A stretch of DNA of 64,000 bases, from NCBI GenBank assembly GCA_964550035.1, contig CAZJVU010000003.1:65383-129382 (forward strand), in the 5' to 3' direction. The notes below the pieces were generated by a model, which ran no database searches, was not told the DNA's origin, and was given only the letters and a program-made list of their open reading frames with translations. Source of the DNA: an uncultured Candidatus Saccharibacteria bacterium (GTDB lineage: Bacteria > Patescibacteriota > Saccharimonadia > Saccharimonadales > EFPC-124). The translations under genes were made by a program, and so were the position numbers. Below, one piece after another: positions 3,331 to 61,726 of the stretch (position 1 is its first letter; the number at the start of each line of letters is the position of its first letter).

Positions 3331-4971
3331 GTGACGAACGAATCAACTCTTTTATACCATGATATGACCAATCTGACAATGCTCGATTGGCTCAGGTTCT
3401 CTGCTATAATGAAACGCATGCAACCTCAGCTAACTCCTGAAGGCGAACGATTAGTTCGTGATCTTGACACTGCCGAAGCTCATATCCCGCATACGGAGGG
3501 CGACAAAATCCACGTCAGCGGCGTGGCAGGTACCATTTATTTTGCGTACGAACAGCTGCGCAATATTGCAGAGTACACCGAGCAGCACCTGATCTTGCGC
3601 GCGACGATCGAGCGCTTCCTCAAGCGGCACATGCAGTTCACCGAGCAGCCAAAGAAACTCGGGTTCGAGCTAGTCGAAGAGCTGACACAAGAGCGTTACA
3701 TCAGTAACGACAGCGTCACGCAATACACCATCGACCGTATCGACGCATACACCGACTACTACATCAAGCTACACCTGACGCTGCACAACGGCATCCACAA
3801 AGTCTCAAAAGAAGAAACCACCCGCTGGACCATTCAGGCTGCATCTGTCGCAGTTGAGCAACAGCTTGCGCCGGCGCACAAGACCGAGGCATTTATCAAC
3901 TTTGCCTACGCGCACTGCCTGAAAGCTATCGATCGCGAAGACTTTGGGGGGCTTGGTGAAGAAGAGTTCACCGTCGCCGTCTACTGCGCCACACACCGTG
4001 CACTTATCAAGTCCGACATCGCGACAACCCGAGCCTACTACATCACCGCCAACCCCGAGAGTGCTCGCACCGTTGATGAGTTCATTCGCGTCAATCGTCT
4101 CATCGACAAGCTGTTCGACGCACCGCTTACCATTCGCCTCAGCCGGCTCATTAGCCGCAACGGCGCACCGCTACGCATTATCCACGAAGTTGGCCAGGCG
4201 CAGGACAGCTCGCTTATCATCCAGCAGTCTGCCAAGCTTGCCAGCTACGTCGGTGCGGTTGCCGACGAGCAATACCAGAAGACGCACAGTCGCCTAGTCA
4301 AAAGCATTATCCGCACGCTGATCTTCGTGTTCATCACTAAAGCTGCGATCGGCCTGCTCATCGAAATTCCGTACGACATCTGGAAACACGGTACGGTGCT
4401 CATGACGCCGCTGCTCGTCAACATGCTCTTCCCGCCGCTCTATATGGCAACAGCAATCTGGGCCGTCAAGCAACCCGATCAGGTCAATACCGACGCCATC
4501 CGTAAACAGATCGAACGCATTTTGTACAGCGGCGAAAACGAAGTGCATTACCGCATCCCAAAGCGCGATATCAGCTCAGCGCTACGCATCGCTTTCAGGC
4601 TTATCTATACGCTCGCGTACGCCGCGTCGTTTAGCTTGGCGGTGTGGCTCCTGCTAAAGCTCGACTTTTCGTTCGTACATATTGGTGTGTTCTTCTTGTT
4701 CTTTAGCGCGGTGAGCTTCTTCCGCTTCCGGCTCATCCAGCAGTCACGCGAGCTCGACATCAACGACCGCCGCGAGAGCATCTTCGACATCATCGGCGAC
4801 TTCTTTTACACACCATTCATCAAGCTTGGCGAATGGCTCAGCGCGCGCTACAAGCGCATCAATGTCATCACCGTCATCCTTGACCTCATGATCGAGATGC
4901 CGCTGAAGACAACACTCCGTATCCTGCAGGAATGGGTACGATTTATGCGGGACAAGCGCGAAGGGTTTTAG
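3331..4971 (+). CDS. Large membrane protein, unknown function (soluble N-terminal ~330 aa plus C-terminal TM bundle)
   Basis: 546-aa ORF; start uncertain (GTG 3331 or a downstream ATG); several C-terminal hydrophobic helices. Confidence 0.65.
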   Translation: MTNESTLLYHDMTNLTMLDWLRFSAIMKRMQPQLTPEGERLVRDLDTAEAHIPHTEGDKIHVSGVAGTIYFAYEQLRNIAEYTEQHLILRATIERFLKRHMQFTEQPKKLGFELVEELTQERYISNDSVTQYTIDRIDAYTDYYIKLHLTLHNGIHKVSKEETTRWTIQAASVAVEQQLAPAHKTEAFINFAYAHCLKAIDREDFGGLGEEEFTVAVYCATHRALIKSDIATTRAYYITANPESARTVDEFIRVNRLIDKLFDAPLTIRLSRLISRNGAPLRIIHEVGQAQDSSLIIQQSAKLASYVGAVADEQYQKTHSRLVKSIIRTLIFVFITKAAIGLLIEIPYDIWKHGTVLMTPLLVNMLFPPLYMATAIWAVKQPDQVNTDAIRKQIERILYSGENEVHYRIPKRDISSALRIAFRLIYTLAYAASFSLAVWLLLKLDFSFVHIGVFFLFFSAVSFFRFRLIQQSRELDINDRRESIFDIIGDFFYTPFIKLGEWLSARYKRINVITVILDLMIEMPLKTTLRILQEWVRFMRDKREGF

Positions 4972-6017
4972 AGCTCTTCTTTCTCCTCCTCTGGCTTCGA
5001 AGCCAGAGGAACGCGAACCGTGAAGGTCGAACCTTTGTCGACTTTACTTGTCACTTCGATGGCGCCTTTGTGGAGGTCAACGATCTTCTTGGCGATGGAC
5101 AGGCCGAGACCGTAGCCATGAACTTTTGTACCTTTGGTGCGGGAGCTGTCCGCGCGGTAGAGACGGTCGAAGATGTGTGGCAAATCGTCTGGCTTGATAC
5201 CGCAGCCTTGGTCGGCCACGGCGATGTAGGCGTTGCCACCTTTGACGCTGGAACTCAGGGTGATCTGCGACTTTTCGGGACTATACTTGATGGCGTTATC
5301 GAGCAGAATCGCAAAGAGTTGGACAAGCCCGTCTTTACTGCCTAGCACAGCCAGTCCTTCAGTCTGGTCGTCGATGGCGATCTTGTGCTGTTTGGCAACT
5401 TTGTCGGTACGCTCTATGGCGCCCTTCAAAACTTGCTTTGTTTCTACGCGATGCGGCTCAAAGGTGTCTTTGTCTTGATTGGCGAGCATGAGGAGGCCAT
5501 TGCTGAGCTCCTGGAGTTTGTTGACCTCCTCGAGGTTGCTTTCCAGGAGTTCACGCGCCTCAGCAATTGATAAGTTCTTATCACGCAGTGAGACTTCGAT
5601 CTCGGTTTGCATTGCCGTCAGCGGCGTCCGGAGCTCGTGCGAGGCATCACCCGTGAACCGCGCTTGCGCCTCCATGGCTTGTTCCAGCGGGCGCAGTGTG
5701 CGGCGCGCCATATAGAAACTCGCCAGGCCGCCCACTACCAATACACCGACATTCGCAAGCGTCAGGTTCGCGATCAGCCGCTGCTGACCCGAGCTAATCT
5801 CGCGGTCACGCAACCGGTCGAGGTCCAGTGGCGAAGGCGTAAAGCCAAACGAATTATAGTATTGCTGGCGAATCGCTGAGCGCTGGTGGTCATAGGCTGC
5901 GTCCAGTGTCTCAGCCGATGAATTGTACAGCACAAAGCTAAACGCCAAGCTCAGCCCCATCACCAGCGCCAAGTACCACGCCGTCAATTTAATTGTTGCA
6001 GACTGAAACATTCTCAC
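4968..6017 (-). CDS. Sensor histidine kinase
   Basis: H-box SHELRTPLTAM; N/G boxes DQGCGI...GYGLGLSIAKKIV; two N-terminal TM segments; 4-nt overlap with the response regulator. Confidence 0.92.
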   Translation of the reverse strand: MRMFQSATIKLTAWYLALVMGLSLAFSFVLYNSSAETLDAAYDHQRSAIRQQYYNSFGFTPSPLDLDRLRDREISSGQQRLIANLTLANVGVLVVGGLASFYMARRTLRPLEQAMEAQARFTGDASHELRTPLTAMQTEIEVSLRDKNLSIAEARELLESNLEEVNKLQELSNGLLMLANQDKDTFEPHRVETKQVLKGAIERTDKVAKQHKIAIDDQTEGLAVLGSKDGLVQLFAILLDNAIKYSPEKSQITLSSSVKGGNAYIAVADQGCGIKPDDLPHIFDRLYRADSSRTKGTKVHGYGLGLSIAKKIVDLHKGAIEVTSKVDKGSTFTVRVPLASKPEEEKEEL

Positions 6018-6691
6018 CCATCTAGTTTATAACCAAATCCTCGCACTGTCTTGAGCAGTTGCGGCTCGCCGCGGAACGGGCGATCGATCTTGTTGCGAAG
6101 ATACCCGATGTACACCTCGACTGTGTTAAATAAAACGTCGGCGTCGTAGCTCCAGACATGCTGGATGATCATCTCTTTGCTGAGGGTGCGGCCTTTGTTG
6201 CGCATGAGGTATTCCAGCAGCGCGAATTCACGCTGTGACAAGTCGATTGTTTTATCTGCGCGACGGACTTCATAGCTTGTGGTGTCGAGCGTTAGGTCAC
6301 CTACCTCAAGCTTCATGCCGAGTGAGTCTTGCGGTCGGCGAAGAAGCGCACGGACGCGGGCCAAGAGCTCTTCGAATGCGAATGGCTTGACTAGGTAGTC
6401 GTCGGCGCCAGCGTCCAACCCAGCGACTCGATCGCGGACAGCGCCTTTGGCGGTTAGCATAAGTATCGGTGTGTGGTTGCCTTCTCCCCTGAGTTCTTTG
6501 CAGACACCGACGCCGTCCATCTCGCCCGGGAGCATGCGGTCGAGGATTATCATGTCATAGTCGTCGGCGCGGGCGCTGGCCAATCCGTCATCGGCATCAT
6601 ACACGACATCGACAGCAAAGGATTCTTGCTGGAGGCCTTTCTTGATTGCGTTCGCGATTTTGTGCTCGTCTTCTACTACTAGGATCTTCAT
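6014..6691 (-). CDS. OmpR-family response regulator
   Basis: Receiver domain (MKILVVEDE...DMIILD...LTAK) plus winged-helix C-terminus (LSQREFALLEYL...TVRGFGYKL). Confidence 0.93.
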   Translation of the reverse strand: MKILVVEDEHKIANAIKKGLQQESFAVDVVYDADDGLASARADDYDMIILDRMLPGEMDGVGVCKELRGEGNHTPILMLTAKGAVRDRVAGLDAGADDYLVKPFAFEELLARVRALLRRPQDSLGMKLEVGDLTLDTTSYEVRRADKTIDLSQREFALLEYLMRNKGRTLSKEMIIQHVWSYDADVLFNTVEVYIGYLRNKIDRPFRGEPQLLKTVRGFGYKLDG

Positions 6692-7974: not shown

Positions 7975-8877
7975 TCAGATCTCGAGGAGCTGCTGGAACT
8001 CATGCGGGTCTCCATAGTGATAGATGAGCTTATCGAGCAAATGCGCAATCGGGTATTCTTCGAGCCGCACCACATGAGGCAGCTCCTGCAAGGTAAAAAG
8101 TCCTTCACTCTGGACGTTTGTATCTGCGATTCGCTCCACGATGCTTCGACCCACGCGGTAGTTAAACGAGTTATCGCCAGTCCCAGCCGCCACAAGGTCG
8201 CCCAAACCGGCGAGGCTCTCAGCAGTTTCCGGCGTAACATTCAGATCGTGCAGAATGCGCTTCATCTCACGCAGAATCATAACGACCAAGCGTCCGCGCG
8301 CGTTGGCGCCGAGCTTGAGTCCATCGCACATGCCAAACGCAATGGCGTAGACATTCTTCAACACGCCACTCACGGCAGTGGCATGCATGTCACTGGAGAT
8401 TTCTAAGAAGACGCGCGCCTTGGCAAAGATGTCGCGAACCGTATTGTCGTAGTCTACTTCCGACAGAGCCAAAATCCCCGAACCCATCTGATGCGCAATG
8501 AGCTCACTTGCGGTCATAGGACCATAGATAAGCCCGTACGGCACACCATGTGGGAGCGTCTCGGCCAGGACGTGGTCGATAGTGACGAAACCTTTCTCAA
8601 CACCCTTGCTGAATGAGATCACCAGCGGTGGGTTCTGCGGGTCGAGGTGTTTCGCTATCTCTTTGGCAACCTCGCGATTGGCCCAGGATGGCACGCAGAT
8701 GAGAAGCACACTGCATGCGACGACAACGTCACGAATGCTCGCGGTCGTCGTGCGGCTGTCCTCGCGGTCGTAATACAGCACCTGCGAGCCAGCCTTCTCG
8801 AGCACGTGGCCAAGCGCCTGACCAAGCTCACCCGCACCAATAATGCCGATCTGGTCTGTTTTGGCTGCGTTCTCCAT
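7975..8877 (-). CDS. gpsA: NAD(P)H-dependent glycerol-3-phosphate dehydrogenase-like
   Basis: IGIIGAGELG Rossmann start, AGLGDLV...G.NSFNYRVG motif; ATG 8877 lies 2 nt after the ndh stop; the longer ORF to 8985 overlaps ndh. Confidence 0.75.
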   Translation of the reverse strand: MENAAKTDQIGIIGAGELGQALGHVLEKAGSQVLYYDREDSRTTTASIRDVVVACSVLLICVPSWANREVAKEIAKHLDPQNPPLVISFSKGVEKGFVTIDHVLAETLPHGVPYGLIYGPMTASELIAHQMGSGILALSEVDYDNTVRDIFAKARVFLEISSDMHATAVSGVLKNVYAIAFGMCDGLKLGANARGRLVVMILREMKRILHDLNVTPETAESLAGLGDLVAAGTGDNSFNYRVGRSIVERIADTNVQSEGLFTLQELPHVVRLEEYPIAHLLDKLIYHYGDPHEFQQLLEI

Positions 8878-8879
8878 GG

Positions 8880-10112
8880 CTACTCTTGCGTCTCCGCGTC
8901 GGTAGATTGGCCTTTTGCGCCACACACAGGGCATGATTCCTCGGTTTCGGCTTCCGCCAGGAAAAGCTCCGACGCCTTCCACCACGGCTCGACATCGTGA
9001 TAGCCTACCCAGTCAGCAGCCTCACGCAGCGCCCAACCGAGCCAGCCATAGATACGAATGCCACCCCAAAGGACTGCCGACCAGTGCTCGCCGGCCGGGT
9101 AGACGTAGATCGGGCGCTTTGGCCGATACACTTTTGGCACGCCGCCGTGAGCCAACCTGCGCAGGTTCTCCGCCAGGAAAACCGCGTCATGCAGCGCCGT
9201 CTGAGCCATACCGCTATATTCAGTCAGCGCATTGTCTCCAATGACGTAAATGTTCTCGGCTGGTTCGTTCTTGGCGCGGAGGAATTCATCCACCACAACC
9301 TTGCCGTGCTCCAGCGTAAAGCCGTTCTCGGCCAAAAACTTATTGCTCGACATACCCGCAGTCCAGATAACCGTGTGGCTCTTGAGCGGGCGACCATTGA
9401 CCATGAGCTCATCGGCAGTCTGCGCCTGCACGGTTTGACCGAGGTATAGCTTGATGCCTTGCTTTCGCAGATGGCGCGCAACGGCGGCCGACAGATCTTT
9501 TGGCATGCGCGGCAAAAGCCGTGGCGAGGCCTCGACAAGCTCGATATTGATCTTGCGCTCCTTCATGCCGTGATTCTTCATAATCCACCGCAAGTAGTGC
9601 GGCAATGCACCTGCCAGTTCGATACCAGTCGGACCACCACCCACAACGACGTAATTGAGGTCTGGCTTGTGCTGGTCGAGCATAAGTTTGTGAAGATGAG
9701 CTTTGAGTTCTTCGGCCTCTTCGATGGATTTGATGCCGTAACTATATTCGGGAAGGCCTTGGATACCGAAGTAATTAGTGATCGAGCCAAGAGCGACGAT
9801 CAAAATATCGTAGGGAATTTTCTTCTTCGAGGCCGTGACTACGACACTCCGTTCGCGGTCGAGTTTCTCGGCAGTTTCTTGGAGCAGCGTCACGCGCTTG
9901 TCTTGGAAAATCTCACTTAATGGGATGACGGACGCCGTCCGGCCCCCACCTGTCGCCGAGCGATACAGCGCCGGGTAATATTTGAAGTCGGTTTTGTCGC
10001 TCAGGAGTGTCACGTCGTACGCGTCAGAATCACTGAGATTAAGTGCTGTCTTGATGCCGCCGAACCCGCCACCGAGGATAAGGACTTGTTTTTTCTGTGC
10101 TTCAGATGCCAT
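8880..10112 (-). CDS. ndh: Type II NADH:quinone oxidoreductase (NDH-2)
   Basis: Two dinucleotide folds (VLILGGGFGG; VVVGGGPTGIELAG); 410 aa with a short Cys-containing C-terminal tail. Confidence 0.88.
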   Translation of the reverse strand: MASEAQKKQVLILGGGFGGIKTALNLSDSDAYDVTLLSDKTDFKYYPALYRSATGGGRTASVIPLSEIFQDKRVTLLQETAEKLDRERSVVVTASKKKIPYDILIVALGSITNYFGIQGLPEYSYGIKSIEEAEELKAHLHKLMLDQHKPDLNYVVVGGGPTGIELAGALPHYLRWIMKNHGMKERKINIELVEASPRLLPRMPKDLSAAVARHLRKQGIKLYLGQTVQAQTADELMVNGRPLKSHTVIWTAGMSSNKFLAENGFTLEHGKVVVDEFLRAKNEPAENIYVIGDNALTEYSGMAQTALHDAVFLAENLRRLAHGGVPKVYRPKRPIYVYPAGEHWSAVLWGGIRIYGWLGWALREAADWVGYHDVEPWWKASELFLAEAETEESCPVCGAKGQSTDAETQE

Positions 10113-10173
10113 GTGTGTGTTTTACCCTTCTTGCACTGCATTATACAAGATAGATAAGGACAAATAAATCGGT

Positions 10174-10210
10174 TGAGAGGGAGCGGGCTCACGAGGAGCC
10201 CGCTCCCTCT
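10174..10210 (-). terminator. GC-rich hairpin
   Basis: gagagggagcgggctc / gagcccgctccctctc, 16-bp stem immediately 3' of gene 10229-10669. Confidence 0.65.
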
Positions 10211-10228
10211 CCCTTCACCACGAGTAAG

Positions 10229-10669
10229 TCACCGGTTAACCTTGATGACCTCGGCCCTCCCGCCAGCCACTCCGCGGAAGCCGCTCAGGGTCGCTCTCCC
10301 GGCCATCTCGGCCGACTTGAACCGGAACGCTCGTGCCTTGCCGGTCTGACCCTGCGCCCAGCGAAGCGTGCCTTCCTGGAGGACGACGTAGTACTCACGG
10401 CCGTTGGTCCCTCTGCAGCCGATCAAGAAACCGCGTCGTCTGGCCGGTTTCTCGCTCGCCGCCGACAACGGGTCCTTGACGACCCGAGTAGGCATGGCCA
10501 CGTGCGTGGGGTGCTTGAGGATCAGTTCGACAGCATCGTCCACCGTTGCGAAACGCGCGGCGGCCCGGATCCCTTCATCACCCTCAACCCACTTGTAGCC
10601 GCGCCTCGACTCCTGGACAACGAAGCTGAACGTGTGCTCGGCGCCTTGTGCCTGTACTATGTATCCCAC
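10229..10669 (-). CDS. Hypothetical protein with internal tandem duplication (GC-rich orphan)
   Basis: GTG start with GAAAGAAGG SD; two ~45-aa repeats (GYIVQAQGAEHTFSFVVQE... / GFLIGCRGTNGREYYVVLQE...). Confidence 0.55.
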   Translation of the reverse strand: MGYIVQAQGAEHTFSFVVQESRRGYKWVEGDEGIRAAARFATVDDAVELILKHPTHVAMPTRVVKDPLSAASEKPARRRGFLIGCRGTNGREYYVVLQEGTLRWAQGQTGKARAFRFKSAEMAGRATLSGFRGVAGGRAEVIKVNR

Positions 10670-10704
10670 CTTGTGCCTTCTTTCGTAGGATGGCGTGGAT
10701 GTCG

Positions 10705-10878
10705 TCAGCCGCGCGGCGCGTCCGCTGCGCGCTGCAGTGGACAGGTTGCGGTGGCCTTTCTTCCCTGTTCGTGCTCCTTACCCAGCTCGTTGCAGCGAGC
10801 CGCCGGGTCTTCGCCCGAGGTCGCCAGCCGCTTCAGGTAGAGGAGCGTTGGACATTTCGAATTGCAGGACAGTGCCAT
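10705..10878 (-). CDS. Small Cys-containing hypothetical protein (GC-rich, upstream of 10229-10669)
   Basis: 57 aa from ATG 10878 with GAGAGGTGA SD; same strand, 35-nt gap to the next gene. Confidence 0.4.
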   Translation of the reverse strand: MALSCNSKCPTLLYLKRLATSGEDPAARCNELGKEHEQGRKATATCPLQRAADAPRG

Positions 10879-11008
10879 GGTGCTCACCTCTCATGTGGTG
10901 CATGACTATATTATACAATATTATCGCTATATATGTAATATAGCAAAATACTTGAGGTTGCCCGCGTGCTTGCATTTTACTGCTCATAAGGGTTACGCTT
11001 GAGCTAAC

Positions 11009-12673
11009 ATGGAAGACTTTACAAACGCCCTCAAATCGCGAGGCTTCAATGGCGATATAGATACGAGCGATAAATCGCTCAACTTCTATAGCCACGATGC
11101 TTCACTGTTCGAAATCAAACCCAAACTGGTAGTAGCGCCGAAAGACAGCAGCGACGTCCAGAAGCTGGTCGCACTCGTGGCCGAGCAAAAGAAATCTAAC
11201 CCGGAGTTGTCCCTCACCGCACGCTCGGCTGGCACCGATATGAGTGGCGGCGCGATCAACGATTCGATCATCGTCGACTTCAACAAATATTTTACAAGCA
11301 TCGAAGGCGTCACACCGACAGAAGGTCACGCCCAGCCTGGTGTGTTCTTTCGTGATTTCGACGCCGAGACGGCCAAGCAAAACGTCCTCCTACCACCGTA
11401 CCCTGCCAGCCGTGACCTCTGTACCATCGGTGGAATGGTCAATAACAACTCAGGTGGCGAGAAGTCGCTCGAATTCGGCAAGACTGAAAACTTCGTGAAC
11501 GAACTGCACGTCGTGTTTGCAGATGGCGTCGAGCGTATGGTCAAGCCTCTAAACAAGCAAGAACTCAATGCCAAAATGGCGCAAGATGACTTCGAAGGCA
11601 AAGTCTACCGCGAGATATTCCAGCTCGTGGACGGCAATTATGAAAAAATCAAAGCCGCCAAGCCGCACGTTAGCAAAAACTCCACCGGCTACAATCTCTG
11701 GGACGTCTGGGACCGCGAAACGCAGATCTTTAATCTTTGCAACTTGATCGTCGGCGCTCAAGGCACGCTTGGCTTCACCACCGACATCAAGTTCAAACTC
11801 GTTCCGCGTCGCGCGCACTCCGGCCTCCTGGTACTCTTCCTGCGCGGTATGGACGACCTCGGCGAGCTTATCCCGAAAATACTCGAGAGCAAGCCGGCTA
11901 CCTTCGAGAGTTTCGACGACCAGACGCTGTGGCTGTCGATTCGATTTATGCCGTCGTTCCTCAAGATGCTCGGACCATGGCGATTCATCAAGCTGCTCTT
12001 CAGCTTGATTCCGGATGGCCTGCTCCTGTTGCGCGGCATTCCGAAGCTGATCTTAATGGTTGAGTTCAATGGCGACACCGAAAAAGAAGTCAGGGGGAAG
12101 ATTCGCGCCCTCCACCAAGAGCTTGGCGCCCACCGCGCGCGCTACGAGATCAACGGCTTCGAAGAAACTCCCACCGAAGGCCGTAGCGAAAAGTTCTGGT
12201 TGATGCGTCGCCAGAGCTTCAAACTGCTTCGCGATAAGGTCAAGGACAAGCACACCGCGCCATTCATCGACGACCTAGTGGTCAATCCGCCGCATTTGGT
12301 TGAGTTCTTGCCGCAGATCCAGCAGATCATTCGCAAGTACAAACTCTTTGCCACCGTTGCTGGGCACATGGGCGACGGCAATTTCCACATTATTCCGCTT
12401 ATGAAGCTCGAGAATCCTGAGGACCGCGCCAAACTCGAACCAGCCATGAGAGAAGTTAATACATTGGTGCTCAAATACAAGGGTTCACTCAGTGGTGAGC
12501 ACAACGACGGCTTAGTACGCGGCCCCTGGCTCGAGCAGATGTACGGCCCTGAAGTTCTGGGCTACTTCCGGCAAGCGAAAGACATCATGGACCCTGAGCA
12601 CATCTTCAATCCACACAAGAAGGCTAATGCCGATTGGGATTACAGCTTTAGCCACGTTCGCGAGCATTTCTAG
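11009..12673 (+). CDS. FAD-binding oxidoreductase (GlcD/D-lactate dehydrogenase-like)
   Basis: 554 aa; FAD_binding_4-type N-terminus (LTARSAGTDMSGGAI), C-terminal FAD-oxidase domain (GSLSGEHNDGL). Confidence 0.85.
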   Translation: MEDFTNALKSRGFNGDIDTSDKSLNFYSHDASLFEIKPKLVVAPKDSSDVQKLVALVAEQKKSNPELSLTARSAGTDMSGGAINDSIIVDFNKYFTSIEGVTPTEGHAQPGVFFRDFDAETAKQNVLLPPYPASRDLCTIGGMVNNNSGGEKSLEFGKTENFVNELHVVFADGVERMVKPLNKQELNAKMAQDDFEGKVYREIFQLVDGNYEKIKAAKPHVSKNSTGYNLWDVWDRETQIFNLCNLIVGAQGTLGFTTDIKFKLVPRRAHSGLLVLFLRGMDDLGELIPKILESKPATFESFDDQTLWLSIRFMPSFLKMLGPWRFIKLLFSLIPDGLLLLRGIPKLILMVEFNGDTEKEVRGKIRALHQELGAHRARYEINGFEETPTEGRSEKFWLMRRQSFKLLRDKVKDKHTAPFIDDLVVNPPHLVEFLPQIQQIIRKYKLFATVAGHMGDGNFHIIPLMKLENPEDRAKLEPAMREVNTLVLKYKGSLSGEHNDGLVRGPWLEQMYGPEVLGYFRQAKDIMDPEHIFNPHKKANADWDYSFSHVREHF

Positions 12674-13087: not shown

Positions 13088-13215
13088 CCAGGCGTCCGGC
13101 CCCGCCCGCACTCTCGCGCGTGAGAGGACCTTCCCAAGTGGAATGGCTCGCTTTAGACGCGAGGCGGGCGGTAAACCCAGATTTCTCTCAGTTTATCTAC
13201 TATAATGTCTAAAGT

Positions 13216-13680
13216 ATGAAGAAGCTATTCATCTCGCTCTCAGTCATCGCCATGTTCGGCCTGTACGTGTGGCACGCTCGAACCGACCAAGACGCGGGTA
13301 AGGTCACTACAAAAGTAGCAGCCGCTAAGGACATGAACGCGCCATCAGCGTCCGCATCTACAACGATGCCCGCAACAGCCCAATCGACCTCGGCTCCGTA
13401 CAAAGATGGCTCGTACATCGGCAGTGCAGCTCGCTCCTATTACGGCAACGTCCAAGTCAGCGCCACTATCGGCGGCGGCAAGCTAACCGATATCGAGTTC
13501 CTGCAATACCCGCGCGACCACCGCGAATCGATGCAAATCAACGAGCAAGCCATGCCACTCCTCAAACAAGAAGCTATCAAGGCGCAAACCGCGCAGATTG
13601 ATGGCGTCAGCGGCGCGACTGACACCAGCGAAGCATTTATCGAATCGCTCAAATCAGCGCTCGATCAGGCCCGAAGCTAA
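13216..13680 (+). CDS. Exported FMN-binding domain protein (flavinylation substrate)
   Basis: N-terminal signal/anchor; FMN_bind domain with the flavinylation motif DGVSGATDTS. Confidence 0.85.
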   Translation: MKKLFISLSVIAMFGLYVWHARTDQDAGKVTTKVAAAKDMNAPSASASTTMPATAQSTSAPYKDGSYIGSAARSYYGNVQVSATIGGGKLTDIEFLQYPRDHRESMQINEQAMPLLKQEAIKAQTAQIDGVSGATDTSEAFIESLKSALDQARS

Positions 13681-14411
13681 TGCAAAAAACCGAACTTATC
13701 ATGGGCATGCCTGTCACCATCAAGCTGACAGACACGTCGAACGACACGCATTTTTCCGAGCTCTTTGATTACTTTCGCGATATCGACGGGCGCTACAGCA
13801 CCTACAAACCGACGAGTGAAATCTCACAAATCAACGCCGGCCTTCCGCGGTCAAAGTGGAGTAACGAAATGCGCCACATGATGGAGCTGTGCGAGCAAAC
13901 CAAGCAGGCAACCGAGGGCTATTTCGACGTTCGTCACGACGGACGCATTGACCCATCAGGCCTCGTAAAGGGTTGGGCCATCCATAACGCCGCCCAGAAA
14001 CTTCTCGCCAAAGGTGTAGCCGACTTCAGTATCGAAGCCGGCGGCGATATCGAGGTTCATGGCCGCAGCGAATCGGGTGATGAGTGGCGTATCGGCATCA
14101 GGAACCCATTCGACAGGACGCAGGTCGTAAAGGTCGTAGGCCTGCGCGATCAAGGTATCGCCACCTCCGGCACATACATTCGCGGCCAACACGTCTACAA
14201 CCCACTTACCGATCAAGAAATTACCGACATCGTGAGCCTCACCGTCATTGGCCCCGACATATACGAAGCCGACCGGTTTGCAACGGCAGCGTTCGCGATG
14301 GAGGCGAAGGGAATTTTGTTTATCGAAAGCCTTCCGGGCTTCGAAGGTTATATGATAGATACAAAAGGCATAGCAACCATGACAAGTGGCTTCGAGGAGT
14401 ACGTGCGGTGA
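13680..14411 (+). CDS. apbE: FAD:protein FMN transferase (ApbE family)
   Basis: MGMPVTI...GIATSGTYIRG pattern typical of ApbE; start codon overlaps the upstream stop by 1 nt (TAATG at 13678-13682). Confidence 0.85.
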   Translation: MQKTELIMGMPVTIKLTDTSNDTHFSELFDYFRDIDGRYSTYKPTSEISQINAGLPRSKWSNEMRHMMELCEQTKQATEGYFDVRHDGRIDPSGLVKGWAIHNAAQKLLAKGVADFSIEAGGDIEVHGRSESGDEWRIGIRNPFDRTQVVKVVGLRDQGIATSGTYIRGQHVYNPLTDQEITDIVSLTVIGPDIYEADRFATAAFAMEAKGILFIESLPGFEGYMIDTKGIATMTSGFEEYVR

Positions 14412-15898
14412 AATGGATCGATGAGTTTCTAGATAAGATTACGATGTATCGGCTGCTGCTGTACTACCTGATCGGGCTGGAGGTTGTCGCGGTCGGGCTG
14501 AGTATCGCCGGCGTACTGCATTTTAAGCCGCTCGATGTTATCTTCTCGGCGCTGTTCGTGACCGGTGTGTGTTGGGTGGCAAATAAGGTCTTGGCCTATG
14601 TGTTTAATGCACCGACAAATGTCGAATCGCCACTTATTACAGGCTTGATCTTGGCGCTTATCATCACGCCGACGCACGAGATGCATGGACTGGTCTTTCT
14701 GGCGGCGGCGGGCGGGCTTGCGATGGCGTCGAAATACATCTTGGCTATCAACGGACGGCATTTGTTTAATCCTGCAGCCATAGCCGTCATTCTCACGAGC
14801 TACGGTGCCGGCGACGCGGCAAGCTGGTGGGTTGGCACGGCGAGTATGTTGCCGTGGGTGCTCATCGGTGGTGCACTACTCACACGACGAATTCGTCGAG
14901 CCGGGATGGTCACGTGGTTTGTCGGTGTCGCATTGGCAGCCACCGTTGTATACGGCCTGATAGACGGCGCAAGCCCTATCACACTTGTCGAGAAGGAAAT
15001 CCTCAACTCCGCACTCTTCTTCTTTGCCTTTGTTATGCTCACCGAACCCCTCACGTCGCCGACAACGCAGGGCAAACGAGCGTGGTTTAGCGCACTCGTG
15101 GGCGCGCTATTCCCGCCCCAGTTCAGTATCGCTGGCGTGTTCGCCTCGCCAGAAGTTGCACTGGCTGTGGGTAATATCTTCAGCTATATCGTCGGGCCTC
15201 GCACTAAGACTCGTTTACACTTCAGAGAGCGTGTCGAGCTTTCGCACAGCACCGCTGACTTTATCTTCCGCCCCGAGCGACCGTTTACCTACCGCCCAGG
15301 TCAATACATGGAGCTCACCTTTCAGCACCCACACACCGACGCTCGTGGCGCTCGCCGATACTTCACATTGGCCAGCTCGCCAACCGAACAGGAAATGCGC
15401 ATTGGCGTCAAATTTTACGAGCCCGGCAGCAGCTATAAACGCGCGCTCCTGGACGTTACGCCCGACACGCCCATCATTGCGTCGCAGCTAGGCGGCGACT
15501 TTGTGATGCCCAAGGACACCAGTAAACGGCTCGTATTCATTGCCGGTGGTATTGGCGTGACGCCGTTTCGGAGTATGATCAAATACCTCCTCGACAAAGG
15601 CGAAAAGCGCGACATCACCCTCCTCTACTCTGCCAAGTCTGCTCACGAGCACGTCTACAAAGAGATCTTCGACGAAGCTACCGCAAAACTCGGCATCACC
15701 GTCGTCTACATCGCGACAGACAAAACAAAACAGGCACGCTACGCCGAGCTCATTGCTCAGCACGTGCCTGATTTTGCGGACTGTACGTTCTATATTTCTG
15801 GTCCACACGCCATGGTCACCGACACAGAACATACGCTCGAGACCATGGGCGTGAGTTTCTCAAGGATCAAGAAAGACTTCTTCTCGGGGTATGCCTAA
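14408..15898 (+). CDS. Membrane oxidoreductase: RnfD/NqrB-like polytopic domain fused to an FNR-type FAD/NAD(P)-binding domain
   Basis: GTG 14408 overlaps the apbE stop. RnfD-like motifs HLFNPAA and MLTEPLTSP. C-terminal RRYFTLASSP (RxYS), GGIGVTPF, YISGPHAM. The ORF extension to 14084 overlaps apbE. Confidence 0.8.
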   Translation: MKWIDEFLDKITMYRLLLYYLIGLEVVAVGLSIAGVLHFKPLDVIFSALFVTGVCWVANKVLAYVFNAPTNVESPLITGLILALIITPTHEMHGLVFLAAAGGLAMASKYILAINGRHLFNPAAIAVILTSYGAGDAASWWVGTASMLPWVLIGGALLTRRIRRAGMVTWFVGVALAATVVYGLIDGASPITLVEKEILNSALFFFAFVMLTEPLTSPTTQGKRAWFSALVGALFPPQFSIAGVFASPEVALAVGNIFSYIVGPRTKTRLHFRERVELSHSTADFIFRPERPFTYRPGQYMELTFQHPHTDARGARRYFTLASSPTEQEMRIGVKFYEPGSSYKRALLDVTPDTPIIASQLGGDFVMPKDTSKRLVFIAGGIGVTPFRSMIKYLLDKGEKRDITLLYSAKSAHEHVYKEIFDEATAKLGITVVYIATDKTKQARYAELIAQHVPDFADCTFYISGPHAMVTDTEHTLETMGVSFSRIKKDFFSGYA

Positions 15899-17067
15899 GC
15901 TTTTGCCTTCTTTGGCTCGGCATCACGAGTGCGAAGGTAGCGGCCAAATGCCAACGACAAACCGCCTAGACCCCAAACCAGCGCCAGGAAACCGAACAGG
16001 CCACCGACAACCGGAATAAGCATCAAGATCGAAAGAATCAGCAGGCCAACAACCAGCGAGATGAAGCGCGGCCATTTCAGCCTCCACTTCATCTGCAGCG
16101 CCGTCCATTCACCCAGCGTGTAGCCACTGTAAGCAAAGCTTGCTACCAGTCCGACTCCCCAGATGAGAAACAGTGCAATGCCGACTGGAATACCGATAAT
16201 CGTCACCATCAGTAGCACAGCGATGATCGGCGTCATGATCAGCGCCGCAAGCCCAGCCAGAAGTGCCCAACCGACTTGCTTCACCATCAACGGTGCTGTG
16301 CTTCGGTAGCTTCGCGGTGCGAGCCCCAGCAGGAACAGCCCGAACAGGAGCGTCGCCGCAAACCAGTACGCGATACCCGCTACACGAGTAGCCCACGTCT
16401 CCTGACGCTTCTCTTCGTGTTTTGGCGGGTCGTGGCGCTGCGTCTTGCCGACAATGGCGCCAGTGGTTGTGCCTTCGATTTGGTTGCGGCTAGTGTAGTC
16501 GACGCTGCCACCAATGTGCGCGCCGTTGCTGATCGCCAAGTGTTCGACATTTGAGACGACATTGCGACCAATCGTCCCCGCTAGTGTTACGTTCTGACCG
16601 TTGACTACAGCATCGCGGCCGATTTTGCCGCCGACCTGTACCATCGTTCCCATAGCAGTGACGTCGCCGTTTACCACTGTATTACCAGTGAACGTTACGT
16701 TCTGACCAAACGCGCTCACATTGCGCGCAACAGGACCACTCACCGCGACCGTCTGTCCAGCAACACGCACGTTGCCCAGCACCGTACCACTGACATTTAC
16801 AGTCTGGCCAGCACAAATGACGTCGCCCTCAACCGTTCCGGTCACATCGACATTTTGACCAGCACAGTACAAGTCGCCCTTTACCGTACCGGCAACCGTG
16901 ACTGTCGCGCCTGCCAGGTAAACGCTACTGTCGACCGTTTCGCCCGGCGCAACACTTGCCGTCGTCCCGCTGCGCATGTTGCCTACTGCGTGCGCCGTCA
17001 GTGGCGCCGCCAAAAGTGTAACCAGCGTCGCCAATGCCAGCACCGCTATTACTCTATATTTCTTCAT
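15895..17067 (-). CDS. Signal-peptide protein with bactofilin-like beta-helical repeats and a polytopic C-terminal membrane domain
   Basis: Repeated G.V.G[DN]V/V.V.G.V units over ~180 aa, then about 6 TM helices. Confidence 0.7.
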   Translation of the reverse strand: MKKYRVIAVLALATLVTLLAAPLTAHAVGNMRSGTTASVAPGETVDSSVYLAGATVTVAGTVKGDLYCAGQNVDVTGTVEGDVICAGQTVNVSGTVLGNVRVAGQTVAVSGPVARNVSAFGQNVTFTGNTVVNGDVTAMGTMVQVGGKIGRDAVVNGQNVTLAGTIGRNVVSNVEHLAISNGAHIGGSVDYTSRNQIEGTTTGAIVGKTQRHDPPKHEEKRQETWATRVAGIAYWFAATLLFGLFLLGLAPRSYRSTAPLMVKQVGWALLAGLAALIMTPIIAVLLMVTIIGIPVGIALFLIWGVGLVASFAYSGYTLGEWTALQMKWRLKWPRFISLVVGLLILSILMLIPVVGGLFGFLALVWGLGGLSLAFGRYLRTRDAEPKKAKA

Positions 17068-47309: not shown

Positions 47310-48197
47310 ATGGGTTCAGACCTACCCCCATTCGATGTAGCGTACAAAACGCTCTGCGCTCACGGCGCGCACATCGAACCGGAACATCGCAGAATTGTGC
47401 GGCTCAATGGCATCGCCGCGCGCGACGGAAATCGCATACTGCCCGTCCTTGTCGACACCTTCGCGATGCAGGGAGTCGGCCAGCTGTATGCCGGCGAAGA
47501 GATGCGAATTCTCCTCAACCGGCAGATGGCTGTTGGATCGAACAGCCTCACCGCCTTCGATTGCATGCTCGGCAAAGCCTACAGCAACAGAAACCGGCTT
47601 CTGATCGGATTCTCCGGTTATGGCACCGCCGGCCGCCCTTACGACGTCGAGGCCCAGGCCATGCAGGCAGTTCTGGCACGTCTGCGTCAGATAGGCCAGG
47701 TGCCGTCGCTGATCGTAGACGGCGGCGTGAGCGATGGCGTGCCCGGCCTCAGCGGTCTGCTCGCCAAACGAGCCGGCGTCTCCAGCCTGGGGTTCGTCCC
47801 TAAGTCTGGGCTCGACGCGATCGGTCCGCGCGATCACCTGGTTGTTCGCAAGAGCACATTCCAGGAGCGTGAACGGCTGGTCGGTTTGGCACCCGACGCG
47901 ATCATATGTCTGAACGGCCACGATGCGACGGTGCGTGAATGCGTGGCGGCGGGTGAGGCCGGTAGTGTCATCCTCTTGTTGGCTTTCCGCAGCAGCTACG
48001 ATCACAGGTCGTTCGCTGGCAGGTACGAAACGCTGTCGAAGCTTCGGAAAACCATGAGCGAGAGACGCCTGCGGGTCTGCCGTGACCCCAAGAATCTCCT
48101 GGCCGACGTTCGGTGGATGGTCCAGACTGCACTCGAGGCGAGCGTGCCCAATCGCCGCTCGCGCCAGCGGACGATCAACACCATTCTGGCCACCTGA
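47310..48197 (+). CDS. LOG/SLOG-superfamily Rossmann protein with N-terminal extension (GC-rich)
   Basis: LIGFSGYGTAG...SLIVDGGVSDGVPGLSGLLAKRAGVSSLGFVP...AIICLNGHDATVRE, co-linear with LOG/DprA-type motifs; AAGGAG SD before ATG 47310. Confidence 0.6.
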   Translation: MGSDLPPFDVAYKTLCAHGAHIEPEHRRIVRLNGIAARDGNRILPVLVDTFAMQGVGQLYAGEEMRILLNRQMAVGSNSLTAFDCMLGKAYSNRNRLLIGFSGYGTAGRPYDVEAQAMQAVLARLRQIGQVPSLIVDGGVSDGVPGLSGLLAKRAGVSSLGFVPKSGLDAIGPRDHLVVRKSTFQERERLVGLAPDAIICLNGHDATVRECVAAGEAGSVILLLAFRSSYDHRSFAGRYETLSKLRKTMSERRLRVCRDPKNLLADVRWMVQTALEASVPNRRSRQRTINTILAT

Positions 48198-48342
48198 CGG
48201 TGAGGCCGCTCCGCGCGCAGCAACCCTGCGTTAGTGGAGCGGCCCGCCGCAAAAAGTATGACATTATATATAAGTTCAGTTTTTCGCGCGGGCGCGGGCT
48301 CTCCATCCGGAAAGCCCGCGCCGTCGCGCTTCTCGAAGCCAG

Positions 48343-49596
48343 CTAGCAGTGCTGGAGTCCCAGACTCCGCGACCCCGGCGTGACGTAGACGAAGCTGATG
48401 TAGCCCGTCTGCCCGCCCCTCTGACCCTTGAGCCAGCGGTCGGTGTCGATGCGGTTGGGGTTGTTGTCGTCGACCGACGTGTTGCGGTTCTCGTTGGTCA
48501 TCCCGGCGCCGGTGTCCCAGCACAAGGCCGTGAACGTGTCACCGCTCCACATATCGGTCCCGCCGAGTTTGCAGCCATTGCTCGCGCAGTACGGCTGCAT
48601 GCTCGTCGAGAGGTACGACGGAGTAGAGTCCTCGCCCAGCCCACTGGCGCCTTCCAGGTGCATGTTCTGCACCGTCGCCACCGCGGTCTGCGGCGGGGGC
48701 GGCTGCGGGTTGGAGTGACCACCGTTGTTGCTGGTCCCGCCGCTGTGCCCGGTGTTGCCGGTCGGGGGCGGGGGCGGCGCCTGAGTGGTCGGCTTCGGCG
48801 GTGCCGGCGGCGTGTAGGCGTTGATGGTGAAGTCACGCGCCCCACTCTTCAACGACTCGTGGTCGCCCGTGACCGAGTGCCGCCACTTGGCGGTCTCGAA
48901 CATCTGGACGATGGCCTTGGGCAGGTCCTTGGCCAGACCCTTGAAGGCTGCGCGGCCGATGGCGAACAGGATGTTCCGGTCCACCAGCAGCACACAGCCC
49001 ACGTCACCCCATGTCTTGTTGCGATCGAGACACCGGATGTACTCATCCCCGACCTTGGCGATCTCGCTGAGGAACTCGGCCACGGTCTTGGACTTGTCGG
49101 CGCCACCACCGAGGGGAATGTAGCGCCAGACGACCTCACCGAGGAAGTACAGCCGCTGCGTGTCGTTGTCCGCCTCGGTGACGTGCACCTTGACCTGGCT
49201 GTTACCGATCGGCGTCCGCAGGTAGTAGCCCGGGGGGACCACGCCACTGCGGAAGTCCGGCCCGTTGATCTGCGGCTGCGAACCGAAGTCACCCGGCCGG
49301 ATGAACGCCAGCATCTGCGACGCCCCGATGTCGCCCTGCGGCGACCGCGCCGGTGTACCGACACCATCACCCGAGAGCGTGACCGCCACCGGAATGCTCG
49401 TGTCGTTGAGCAGGTGCAGCGTCTTGCCGTCGAAGCAGGCCTTGATCGGCAGGTCGCCAGGGATGCTCACGCGGCTGTTGTCTTCCGCGCACATCCCTTT
49501 GTCTTCACCGGCCCATGCCGGGACGGCCACACCACCGACCAGCGCGATGAACGCCAGTACGAGAGTGAACGCCGAACGCGTTACTTTGCTGCGCAT
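48343..49596 (-). CDS. Secreted protein, two domains joined by a Pro-rich linker (GC-rich)
   Basis: Signal peptide ...VPAWA|GE; PPAPPKPTTQAPPPPPTGN...PQPPPPQ linker; Cys-containing C-terminal ~110 aa; no family recognised. Confidence 0.65.
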   Translation of the reverse strand: MRSKVTRSAFTLVLAFIALVGGVAVPAWAGEDKGMCAEDNSRVSIPGDLPIKACFDGKTLHLLNDTSIPVAVTLSGDGVGTPARSPQGDIGASQMLAFIRPGDFGSQPQINGPDFRSGVVPPGYYLRTPIGNSQVKVHVTEADNDTQRLYFLGEVVWRYIPLGGGADKSKTVAEFLSEIAKVGDEYIRCLDRNKTWGDVGCVLLVDRNILFAIGRAAFKGLAKDLPKAIVQMFETAKWRHSVTGDHESLKSGARDFTINAYTPPAPPKPTTQAPPPPPTGNTGHSGGTSNNGGHSNPQPPPPQTAVATVQNMHLEGASGLGEDSTPSYLSTSMQPYCASNGCKLGGTDMWSGDTFTALCWDTGAGMTNENRNTSVDDNNPNRIDTDRWLKGQRGGQTGYISFVYVTPGSRSLGLQHC

Positions 49597-50015
49597 GTGT
49601 TGTCCACTACCTTCCCGAGGGATTCGAACGTACTACCGAAACCGTTGGCCTCGTCGTCGCTGAGTTGCGTGCTGGAGGCCACCTTGTCGAGCGCCGATGC
49701 GCCGTTGGACAGCATGGTCTTCGTGTCGGCCGGAACCGACGCGTCGCCAGCAGCCCCACGGAGCTGTGCCGCCGCCTGCATGATGATGGTCTTGTCGTCG
49801 TTCGTGGCGGTGCCCGACACCGCGTTGGTCACGGCGTTGGTCAGCCCATCGGGCAGCTTGATCAGCTGCTGACAGTAACCGGGCGCACCCTCTCGGAGGG
49901 ACACAGCCGAATCGTCGCTGCACGCGGCCGTGGGCAGGATCGTCGCAACCGCCACAGCCAAAACGACCATGGAGCGACTGCACGAAGTGAACCTCAAGGT
50001 TACCCAACTCCTCAC
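49581..50015 (-). CDS. Lipoprotein, helical (GC-rich); start uncertain (TTG 49997 likely)
   Basis: Lipobox ILPTAAC|S; 16-nt overlap with the downstream secreted-protein gene. Confidence 0.6.
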   Translation of the reverse strand: MRSWVTLRFTSCSRSMVVLAVAVATILPTAACSDDSAVSLREGAPGYCQQLIKLPDGLTNAVTNAVSGTATNDDKTIIMQAAAQLRGAAGDASVPADTKTMLSNGASALDKVASSTQLSDDEANGFGSTFESLGKVVDNTCAAK

Positions 50016-50218
50016 TTAAACTGCAAGCCCCGAATTGCACGGGGCTCTTATCCTAACTTGGCTTCCAATAAATATACTACAGAAACAGCTTCGTCACAAT
50101 TTTGCAAATAATTTCATGGACTGAGGCCCCCTCCGGGTGGAGGGGGCCGTTCGCGCACACAGTCCTCAGTGGCTTCTGTCTTTAGAGCCTCCTCGACATA
50201 GATGGTCCGGCTGATTGG

Positions 50219-52549: not shown

Positions 52550-52662
52550 CTCAATGCTCCTTAGGCACCTCGAAATGGACAATCATCTATGTTAAATGAC
52601 TCGTATGCGCTCGCTATACTATAACATATATTTAACAGATGTCACGATATATCGTACAATGC

Positions 52663-57964: not shown

Positions 57965-58852
57965 ATGAAGTTTACCTTTCCCAAACAGCTCAAAGTCCTT
58001 CTCATCACTGGCGGCATCCTCGTCACGCTTGCGGCGGTTGCGGCAGCGATATGGTTTATCAGCAACCACAACATTGCCGTGCTCAACCCGATGGGAACGA
58101 TTGCTGATCAGCAGCGACAACTACTAACTACCTCCGTATTACTGATGGCGCTGGTGGTGATTCCCGTCTTTGTGCTCACCTTCGGCATCGCCTGGCGATA
58201 TCGCGCCGGCAACAAGAAAGCCACGTACTCGCCTGAGCTTACTGGCAATAAGTGGGCTGAGGCGATCTGGTGGCTGATTCCGTTTGCAATCATCGTCGTT
58301 CTCGCTGGCATGGTTATTGTGAGTAGTCACACGCTCGACCCGTTCAAGAAACTTACGAGCAATAAACCGCCGCTCAAGGTACAAGTCATCGCGCTGGAAT
58401 GGAAATGGCTGTTCCTGTACCCCGAGCAGCACGTCGCCGCGGTCAACTACCTGCCGATTCCGACTGACCGACCAATTGATTTCCAGCTGACGAGCGATGC
58501 GCCGATGAACTCATTCTGGATTCCACAGCTCGGCGGTCAAGTCTACGCCATGTCGGGCATGAGCACACAGCTGCACCTCATGGCCAGCAAGCCGGGCGAC
58601 TACCGCGGCTCGAGCGCGAACATTAGCGGTGAAGGATTCGCCGGTATGACATTCACGACACACGCCACACCGCAATCCGACTTCGACAAGTGGGTTGCCG
58701 AAACGCAAAAGTCAAACAAGACAATGACGCTGGACACCTACAACGACCTCGCCAAGCAGTCCAAAAATGTCCCACCAGCTAGCTACACGTTCCCCGCCGC
58801 ATACGACAAACTCTACGATACCGTCATAATGAAATACATGTCACACCAGTAG
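57965..58852 (+). CDS. cyoA: Cytochrome bo3-type quinol oxidase subunit II
   Basis: Two TM helices plus a cupredoxin domain lacking CuA Cys ligands (quinol-oxidase type). Confidence 0.9.
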
Positions 58853-58857
58853 GAGGA

Positions 58858-61723: not shown

Positions 61724-61726
61724 CGA

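Follow-up and report, generated by a model that had tools for sequence, protein, structure and literature searches.

How could a bacterium with a small genome pass reducing power from its cytoplasm to the outside of the cell? This question is raised by three genes at positions 13216-15898 of a 64-kb stretch of DNA (hereafter the window; 64,000 nucleotides of contig CAZJVU010000003.1) from an uncultured Candidatus Saccharibacteria bacterium. The initial annotation had described them as a compact transmembrane electron-transfer module that depends on covalently attached flavin mononucleotide (FMN). Our analysis indicates that the three genes probably form one operon belonging to the published "NQR/RNF-like" system, that is, a two-subunit transmembrane oxidoreductase that uses only flavins, encoded together with its dedicated flavin transferase, which takes FMN from flavin adenine dinucleotide (FAD). 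The genes lie head to tail on the plus strand, at the coordinates given at the outset:

13216..13680, plus strand: gene 1, a membrane-anchored FMN_bind protein, the NqrC/RnfG-like subunit (154 amino acids; Pfam FMN_bind)
13680..14411, plus strand: gene 2, a leaderless "mini" ApbE, FAD:protein FMN transferase (243 amino acids; Pfam ApbE)
14408..15898, plus strand: gene 3, a fusion of an RnfD/NqrB-like membrane domain with an FNR-type domain (496 amino acids)

The tight coupling of these genes, which had been proposed from the beginning, is visible at both junctions. Genes 1 and 2 overlap in TAATG, in which the last A of the TAA stop codon is also the A of the gene 2 ATG, and genes 2 and 3 overlap in GTGA, which contains the TGA stop codon of gene 2 and the GTG start codon of gene 3 at 14408. 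An alternative start of gene 3 is the ATG at 14444, while the start at 14084, which yields the mechanically longest open reading frame, was rejected as it lies inside gene 2. An identical protein of 496 amino acids is on record and matches the 14408 start, the gene having been called in this way on two metagenome contigs. A perfect TATAAT is found 9 nt ahead of the gene 1 start codon, and a Shine-Dalgarno sequence is absent (window 13201-13216). Given the position of this hexamer, the transcript of the operon may be leaderless or nearly so. The hexamer was left unreported by the consensus promoter scan owing to its poor -35 region, and neither the promoter and terminator scan nor the Rfam scan returned anything useful at the operon. 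At its other end, the stop codon of gene 3 is overlapped by 4 nt by a convergent gene (15895-17067, minus strand, 390 amino acids), the product of which has a signal-like N-terminus, a bactofilin-like repeat region and C-terminal membrane helices. The repeat region is below the Pfam cut-off here and is listed as DUF8173 in precomputed hits; this gene is not conserved beside the operon at other loci.

The central component is the fusion protein encoded by gene 3, which comprises the following parts:

14408..15196, plus strand: RnfD/NqrB-like polytopic membrane domain, residues 1-263 (Pfam, profile, fold and alignment)
14759-14779, plus strand: motif HLFNPAA, residues 118-124
15035-15061, plus strand: motif MLTEPLTSP, residues 210-218
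15203..15898, plus strand: FNR-type flavin/NAD(P)H domain, predicted to be cytoplasmic, residues 266-496 and the stop codon (Pfam, fold and sequence matches)
15353-15376, plus strand: RRYFTLAS, a flavin-binding motif, R317-Y-F-T320, i.e. R-x-[YF]-[ST]
15545-15568, plus strand: motif GGIGVTPF, residues 380-387

The membrane domain is a homologue of RnfD and NqrB without the flavin loop. It matches Pfam NQR2_RnfD_RnfE (PF03116) with 31.1 bits over residues 152-236 (gathering cut-off 27.7), and when a profile of 13 family members (residues 1-266) was compared with all PDB sequences, RnfD of Azotobacter was the only match (8ahx_D, E=7e-4). Alignment of the family with E. coli RsxD by hhalign gave E=1.8e-5 over 104 columns. 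Since the fold search with the whole protein was dominated by the FNR-type domain, the membrane domain was modelled again in isolation (residues 1-266). The top 15 matches of this AlphaFold2 model, which has a mean predicted local distance difference test (pLDDT) score of 78.6, were RnfD chains (query TM-score 0.68-0.73) and NqrB chains (0.56-0.62) only, and urea transporters came next, at E>0.1. The profile homology on which the initial annotation had staked its assignment of this domain is therefore present.

A MAFFT alignment showed that the membrane domain of gene 3 is collinear with RsxD from end to end, the common landmarks (RsxD/gene 3) being LTGLLLA/ITGLILA, FNPA, GWQW/SWW, LTDPVTASTT/LTEPLTSPTT and ANI/GNI. 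The loop of approximately 75 residues that lies between FNPA and GWQW in RsxD, and which carries DGISQAT with the flavinylated T187, is deleted in gene 3. The deletion is placed between residues 124 and 139, and just 14 residues separate FNPAA from SWWVG. This deletion explains why the fusion has no SGAT site of its own, as had been pointed out initially. The conserved Ser139 (GAGDAAS-WW) was considered as a remnant flavinylation site and rejected, as the RsxD loop is deleted, an Asp is missing at position -6, and position -3, where Ser or Thr is required, is occupied by Asp.

The C-terminal part of the fusion is an FNR-type domain, in agreement with the earlier description. It matches NAD_binding_1 (PF00175) over residues 379-476 with 49.8 bits (cut-off 22, E=6.2e-13), and there is also a weak match to NAD_binding_6. 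In the full-length model (mean pLDDT 82.6), the last helix (248-262) is followed by a six-stranded barrel and then by a Rossmann-type domain. The structure and sequence matches of the C-terminal domain include flavohemoglobin reductase, the FAD domain of NqrF, Fre, cytochrome b5 reductase and the SpNOX dehydrogenase. The match to NqrF is limited to the FAD/NAD part (chain residues ~265-408), and Pfam detected no ferredoxin (2Fe-2S) domain in gene 3. Three of the four motifs reported at the outset, namely HLFNPAA, MLTEPLTSP and GGIGVTPF, occur as given, while the fourth, RxYS, does not occur in its literal form and is replaced by the RYFT of RRYFTLAS. The S-A-K that follows the second strand of the NAD domain presumably hints at NADPH, which is our conjecture from the FNR family. 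Many Arg and Lys residues follow the last helix in the linker (GPRTKTRLHFRER), as they do in the tail of RsxD, which points to a cytoplasmic location of the NAD(P)H domain. By homology to RsxD, the vacated FMN pocket of the membrane domain would face the outside.

The covalent flavin that the fusion can no longer carry would be provided by the product of gene 1, the parts of which are as follows:

13225..13272, plus strand: signal anchor, MKK-LFISLSVIAMFGLYVW (hydropathy and distribution of Lys and Arg)
13312..13398, plus strand: low-complexity, Ala/Ser/Thr/Pro-rich tether that connects the anchor with the FMN_bind domain (direct sequence reading)
13600..13620, plus strand: ApbE target motif DGVSGAT, residues 129-135, 19 residues from the C-terminus

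The protein thus consists of MKK and a hydrophobic segment of 16 residues, a tether of about 40 residues, the FMN_bind domain and DGVSGAT. The Pfam FMN_bind match covers residues 75-150 (E=2.5e-11, 44.5 bits, cut-off 22). Together with the hydrophobic anchor and the motif, it upholds the earlier description of an exported FMN_bind protein that carries DGVSGAT, in which Thr135 (codon 13618-13620) is the predicted site of FMN attachment. Export signals were judged by hydropathy and charge, and the N-terminus was found to contain no lipobox, AxA cleavage site or twin-arginine motif. A phmmer search with E. coli RsxG against the six-frame translation of the window gave no match (E<=10), gene 1 included; the relationship of gene 1 to NqrC and RnfG therefore rests on Pfam FMN_bind and the literature. 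All FMN_bind homologues start with a signal anchor of the MKK-hydrophobic kind seen in gene 1, a cleavable signal or a lipobox; those of Actinomycetota carry a lipobox (LLGVVTGC) and the spirochaetal ones cleavable signal peptides. Their tethers are very variable in length, and their total length ranges from 132 to 342 amino acids. Of 72 homologues, 65 carry a [ST]G[AS][ST] motif at a distance of 18-20 residues from the C-terminus, and the remaining seven have AGSS, AGAS or NGSS.

Gene 2 was correctly identified as an ApbE FMN transferase (Pfam ApbE, E=6.9e-39, 134.4 bits). It was aligned to V. cholerae ApbE and Listeria FmnB from the PDB (6nxi, 7esa) and to E. coli Ftp. In the alignments to 6nxi and 7esa, Ser163, His171 and Asp198 fall on the positions of the catalytic triad, which has been defined for ApbE/FmnB as S241, H257 and D285 of the V. 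cholerae enzyme (PMC12052999). Gene 2 thus retains the catalytic residues of ApbE and encodes a putative active transferase. The protein begins at the first strand of the mature ApbE fold, whereas E. coli Ftp has 40 additional N-terminal residues, within which the lipobox signal MEISFTRVALLAAALFFVGC was found as expected for this control. Gene 2 is also shorter by about 57 residues in the linker that joins the two T-fold halves.

The same three genes recur together in distant bacteria. Among the best 8000 candidates that were scored, at least 7490 are relatives of the fusion with E<=0.001, and 704 clusters of 50%-identity representatives have E<=1e-30. The nearest named relatives of gene 3 belong to Saccharimonadia and Patescibacteria, and by these best hits the window probably derives from that group as well; several homologues are named "RnfABCDGE type electron transport complex subunit D" by NCBI. 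A scan with one genome per species provided 80 related loci, which span many classes of Patescibacteria, Chloroflexota (Ktedonobacteria, Anaerolineae), Alphaproteobacteria (Mesorhizobium, Kaistia), Actinomycetota (Agreia, Herbiconiux, Arthrobacter) and Spirochaetota. Both FMN_bind and ApbE adjoin the fusion gene in 66 of them, and in 65, from five phyla, the order is FMN_bind, ApbE, fusion, with genes that overlap or nearly abut. The neighbourhood check that had been suggested for the three-gene set therefore turned out positive.

Two subtypes can be distinguished. The first comprises 49 loci like that of the window, with an ApbE core of no more than 265 amino acids and mostly SGAT; the deletion of about 57 linker residues is common to 49 of the neighbouring ApbE genes. 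The second comprises 17 loci (L038, L041, L045, L050, L054, L058, L063, L064, L067, L068, L071, L074, L077, L078 and L080-L082) with a longer, still leaderless ApbE (279-314 amino acids), a divergent FMN_bind protein and SGSS/AGSS (or SGAS) motifs, and was found in Actinomycetota and some Patescibacteria. In about one locus in eight, no ApbE, or neither partner, adjoins the fusion gene in the neighbourhood view. Nine loci show neither partner gene: two (L051, L072) end at a contig edge upstream of the fusion gene, and at L022, L031, L034, L036, L048, L075 and L076 the fusion gene stands alone. At L011, L029 and L060, FMN_bind is present with no ApbE nearby. With hundreds of 50%-identity clusters and at least five phyla, the module is widespread, also among many ultra-small Patescibacteria, whose redox repertoire is otherwise limited.

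These data show the identities of the domains, the homology, the deleted loop, the coupling of the three genes and their joint conservation across phyla, whereas we infer which cofactors the module uses, which way the electrons flow, on which side its parts lie and what kind of acceptor it serves. In the FNR-type domain, on the cytoplasmic side, FAD would accept a hydride from NAD(P)H. The electrons would then cross the membrane through the RnfD/NqrB-like domain, which has lost its own flavin-bearing loop, probably relayed by a non-covalent flavin in the cytoplasmic half of that domain, by analogy with the riboflavin in NqrB. The FMN that ApbE is predicted to attach to Thr135 of the tethered, external gene 1 product would dock in the outward pocket and be reduced there, and could subsequently swing off on its tether to reduce an external acceptor. 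The electron route suggested by the initial annotation, from NAD(P)H through FAD and the membrane domain to covalent FMN outside the cell, is supported by our results and coincides with the one-way model from NAD(P)H to external acceptors that was put forward in PMC8238504 and repeated in PMC11334425.

For the external acceptor and for the regulation of the module, hints were sought in the neighbourhood of the operon and of its homologues. The following genes of the window are concerned:

4968-6017, minus strand: OmpR-family histidine kinase, two-component pair, possible regulator
6014-6691, minus strand: OmpR-family response regulator, two-component pair, possible regulator
7975-8985, minus strand: GpsA-like glycerol-3-phosphate dehydrogenase, between the two-component system and the module
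8880-10112, minus strand: Pyr_redox_2/NDH-2-like protein (Pfam; compatible with NDH-2, not specific)
11009-12673, plus strand: GlcD/YdiJ-type FAD-linked oxidase, between the two-component system and the module
57965-62590: CyoA/B/C/D-like subunits and a UbiA/CyoE-like protein, bo3-type oxidase

OmpR-type two-component pairs stand beside the operon in 16-19 of the 80 loci, in several phyla, and their proteins are up to 63% (regulator) and 43% (kinase) identical to those of the window. The best NCBIfam match of the window regulator is the heavy-metal (CopR/CusR/SilR) response-regulator subfamily, just below the cut-off. We tentatively suggest that the two-component system at 4968-6691 (minus strand) regulates the module. 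Other recurrent neighbours are a P-type ATPase (six loci), VIT1 (four loci; VIT1 neighbours had already been noted by Méheust 2021, PMC8238504) and a PepSY protein (five loci of the Mesorhizobium group). As heavy-metal-type two-component systems, VIT1 and P-type ATPases recur near the operon, we would hazard the guess that the acceptor is a metal ion (Fe(III), Cu(II)) or an oxidant-related substrate, which the neighbourhoods weakly suggest.

The stretch between the two-component system and the module (window 7975-12673) contains redox genes. The initial annotation had placed an NDH-2 at 8880-10112 and a quinol oxidase at 57965-62590 and had tied both to the module. The former encodes a Pyr_redox_2 protein for which NDH-2 is a compatible but not a specific identity, and the latter does encode CyoABCD-like and UbiA/CyoE-like proteins; the proposed functional tie has nothing behind it beyond the presence of these genes in the same 64-kb window. 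Elsewhere in the window, the region 48000-52600 has a G+C content of 63-65%, compared with about 55% in the remainder. It encodes a predicted secreted protein of 417 amino acids that contains a Pro-rich linker and matches no Pfam family (48343-49596, minus strand) and a class A penicillin-binding protein (50219-52582, minus strand), and it also contains a long antisense open reading frame that is probably spurious.

Several observations weigh against the assignment of the operon to an outward-directed reductase. The homology to RnfD spans only about 85 residues at the sequence level, and the predicted structure has low confidence at residues 112-145 and 235-250. Of the five Pfam families that the initial annotation had expected, FMN_bind, ApbE, NQR2_RnfD_RnfE and NAD_binding_1 exceed their cut-offs, while FAD_binding_6 was not detected in gene 3 at E<=0.01, even though the predicted model contains the beta-barrel. 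No conserved gene for a terminal reductase or acceptor was found near the operon among the 80 neighbourhoods, and the two-component pair of the window lies 6.5 kb from the operon, with unrelated genes in between, so that its link to the module is one of neighbourhood only. Our literature search retrieved no experimental study of the NQR/RNF-like system, only bioinformatic papers and a review. Finally, the cognate ApbE is predicted to be cytosolic while its substrate is predicted to be exported, and this across five phyla with different envelopes. This leaderless ApbE, which had escaped notice in the initial annotation, complicates a simple picture of sidedness and is not explained by the published model.

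There is no in-frame start codon upstream of 13680 for gene 2, and neither a signal peptide nor a lipobox was found on ApbE in the window or in any of the 67 ApbE genes that adjoin a fusion gene. The longer apparent open reading frames of some neighbouring ApbE genes are over-extensions that overlap gene 1, and the highest 12-residue hydropathy of any ApbE N-terminal extension is 1.48, compared with 2.68 for the E. coli ApbE signal. Two routes around the problem were considered and rejected. Fusion of gene 1 and gene 2 by a frameshift at TAATG, by which ApbE could be exported, is contradicted by the lack of any fused homologue among the 80 loci. Export of a pre-flavinylated gene 1 product by twin-arginine translocation is contradicted by the homologues, only four of about 70 of which have an RR pair before the hydrophobic segment, while the window protein has KK.

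ApbE enzymes that reside in the cytosol and act on substrates there are known, for instance for Klebsiella fumarate reductase (PMC12052999), whereas our literature search found none acting on exported substrates. A term search of PMC11334425 and PMC8238504 found no mention of the location of ApbE in this system, the "signal peptide" passages of the latter being general methods. It is conceivable, although we hold this with some doubt, that ApbE works in the cytoplasm throughout this operon class and that the FMN carrier is flavinylated before or during Sec-dependent export, or else that ApbE leaves the cell by an unrecognised route. Cytoplasmic flavinylation, if true, would constitute a biogenesis pathway for external flavoproteins that requires no FAD exporter and that suits minimal genomes such as those of Saccharimonadia; a chain bearing an FMN phosphoester would have to be able to pass the translocon. 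The leaderless ApbE consequently turns the place and timing of carrier flavinylation into a concrete, testable question of general reach.

A third option is that the FMN_bind domain itself is cytoplasmic. It would be inserted N-out, C-in and would shuttle electrons between the FNR domain and either the membrane domain or a cytosolic partner, which would agree with the leaderless ApbE in 67 of 67 neighbouring cases and with the Klebsiella precedent. We nevertheless regard this arrangement as quite improbable. MKK followed by a hydrophobic segment predicts the opposite orientation of gene 1, N-in and C-out, and the lipoboxes of the actinobacterial homologues and the cleavable signal peptides of the spirochaetal ones argue for export. 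Furthermore, NqrC and RnfG, which are homologous to gene 1, reside in the periplasm, the pocket of the deleted FMN loop would open outwards by homology to RsxD, and the published AlphaFold-multimer model docks the FMN_bind subunit on the outer face (PMC11334425). Somewhat better placed, yet still unlikely in our opinion, is a miniature NQR that would act as an NAD(P)H:quinone oxidoreductase, using quinone and riboflavin sites inherited from NqrB to feed the bo3-type oxidase, in which case the FMN_bind protein would only relay electrons internally or play a structural part. In Na+-NQR, electrons do pass through NqrB in the last steps before ubiquinone (PMC11334425), and the CyoABCD-like and CyoE-like proteins of the window make a quinone pool likely. 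However, the membrane domain is closer to RnfD, which has no quinone, than to NqrB, as seen from the TM-scores given above. An exported FMN carrier and ApbE would both be superfluous if a cytoplasmic FAD were to reduce a quinone, and yet the two are strictly conserved together with the fusion. NqrD and NqrE, which form the outward path of NQR, are absent from the window, which moreover already contains an NDH-2-like gene.

The direction of electron flow could also be the reverse, from an external donor to NAD(P)+, or the module could translocate ions as Rnf and Nqr do. RnfD and NqrB are parts of reversible, ion-translocating complexes (PMC12174285), and the fold of the membrane domain is related to that of urea channels. 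This appears very improbable to us, given that the reduction of NAD(P)+ by flavins only would need a donor of very low potential or an input of energy, that the window lacks the subunits (A/E, B, C) by which Rnf and Nqr close the loop, and that the neighbourhood suggests no donor. The name that NCBI gives to several homologues would fit a fragment of a complete Rnf or Nqr complex, the other subunits of which are encoded elsewhere in the genome. This can hardly be reconciled with the FNR fusion, the loss of the loop and a self-contained three-gene operon that is conserved across phyla without rnfA, rnfB, rnfC or rnfE as neighbours; in addition, no other Rsx homologue is found in the 64-kb window and no NCBIfam equivalog reaches its cut-off, so that there is next to no likelihood of such a fragment. 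An outward-directed, flavin-only oxidoreductase of two subunits is consequently the explanation that we prefer.

With regard to known systems, the closest is the NQR/RNF-like system of Méheust 2021 (eLife, PMC8238504), in which a PF03116+PF00175 fusion occurs in a flavinylation cluster; section 13 and supplementary file 2 of that paper report it in 127 genomes, mainly of Actinobacteria and candidate phyla radiation bacteria. Huang 2024 (mSystems, PMC11334425) modelled the pair of Ktedonobacter by AlphaFold-multimer, noted the missing threonine and suggested that the flavin pocket of the membrane subunit is visited by the covalently bound FMN of its external partner. The architecture of the window operon is identical, with an N-terminal PF03116 membrane domain fused to PF00175 and adjoined by an anchored FMN_bind protein and ApbE. 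Both have lost the threonine that is flavinylated in NqrB/RnfD, and no essential difference was observed. The locus is therefore an ordinary member of a described system, and the electron route proposed for it, while right, had already been published. What we add to the published picture is that the loss of the threonine corresponds to the deletion of a loop of about 75 residues, that the cognate ApbE is leaderless throughout, and that two subtypes exist.

Compared with Rnf (E. coli RsxD/RsxG; PDB 7zc6, 8ahx, 9eri), the module has in common the RnfD fold (TM-score ~0.7), the FNPA, SWW/GWQW and LTEP/LTDP motifs, and a partner that is an anchored FMN_bind protein like RnfG, which is itself flavinylated by ApbE. 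In contrast to Rnf, it has no RnfA, B, C or E and no covalent FMN site on its RnfD-like domain, it possesses a fused FNR domain, and the semicircular path from ferredoxin to NAD+ is absent. When the six-frame translation of the window was searched by phmmer with E. coli RsxA, B, C, E and G, nothing was found at E<=10, RsxD alone matching gene 3, and Rnf subunits A, B, C and E are absent from the 80 related neighbourhoods. As a site for covalent FMN on the RnfD-like domain and, in the window and these neighbourhoods, subunits A, B, C and E are lacking, the locus does not belong to a genuine Rnf or Nqr complex. Na+-NQR likewise contains homologues of the three flavin parts, namely the NqrF-type FAD/NADH, the NqrB-type membrane and the NqrC-type FMN domains. 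It differs in that the 2Fe-2S domain of NqrF as well as NqrA, D and E have no counterpart in the 64-kb window, in that electrons would run through the NqrB-like domain in the reverse direction, and in that the fold similarity is lower than to RnfD.

The NOX and ferric reductases (SpNOX, PDB 8qq7; eukaryotic FRE/NOX/DUOX) also combine an N-terminal membrane domain with a C-terminal FNR-type domain and move electrons outwards from NAD(P)H, and the dehydrogenase domains match structurally. The membrane domain is nevertheless unrelated, its fold being that of RnfD and the urea channels, and flavins would serve as the carriers, one of them on a separate tethered subunit. Pfam gave no match in gene 3 to PF01794, the six-helix bis-haem ferric-reductase domain. 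We thus consider this resemblance to be an analogy, with flavins in place of haems, and not a sign of membership in the family. The flavin-based extracellular electron transfer system of Listeria (Ndh2, EetA/B, PplA, FmnB) shares with the module an ApbE-type transferase and an external FMN_bind carrier. It relies, however, on a specialised NDH-2 and the quinone pool, whereas the module would be a direct transmembrane flavoprotein, and its FmnB is a secreted lipoprotein that is fed with FAD by a dedicated exporter, in contrast to the leaderless ApbE described here. The module would mark a piece of the cell-surface physiology of these bacteria, to which this locus adds little beyond another example. 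Should the published model hold, the module would be among the simplest known routes by which cytosolic reducing power crosses a membrane, as it would consist of two proteins that use flavins only, with no haem, iron-sulfur cluster or quinone.

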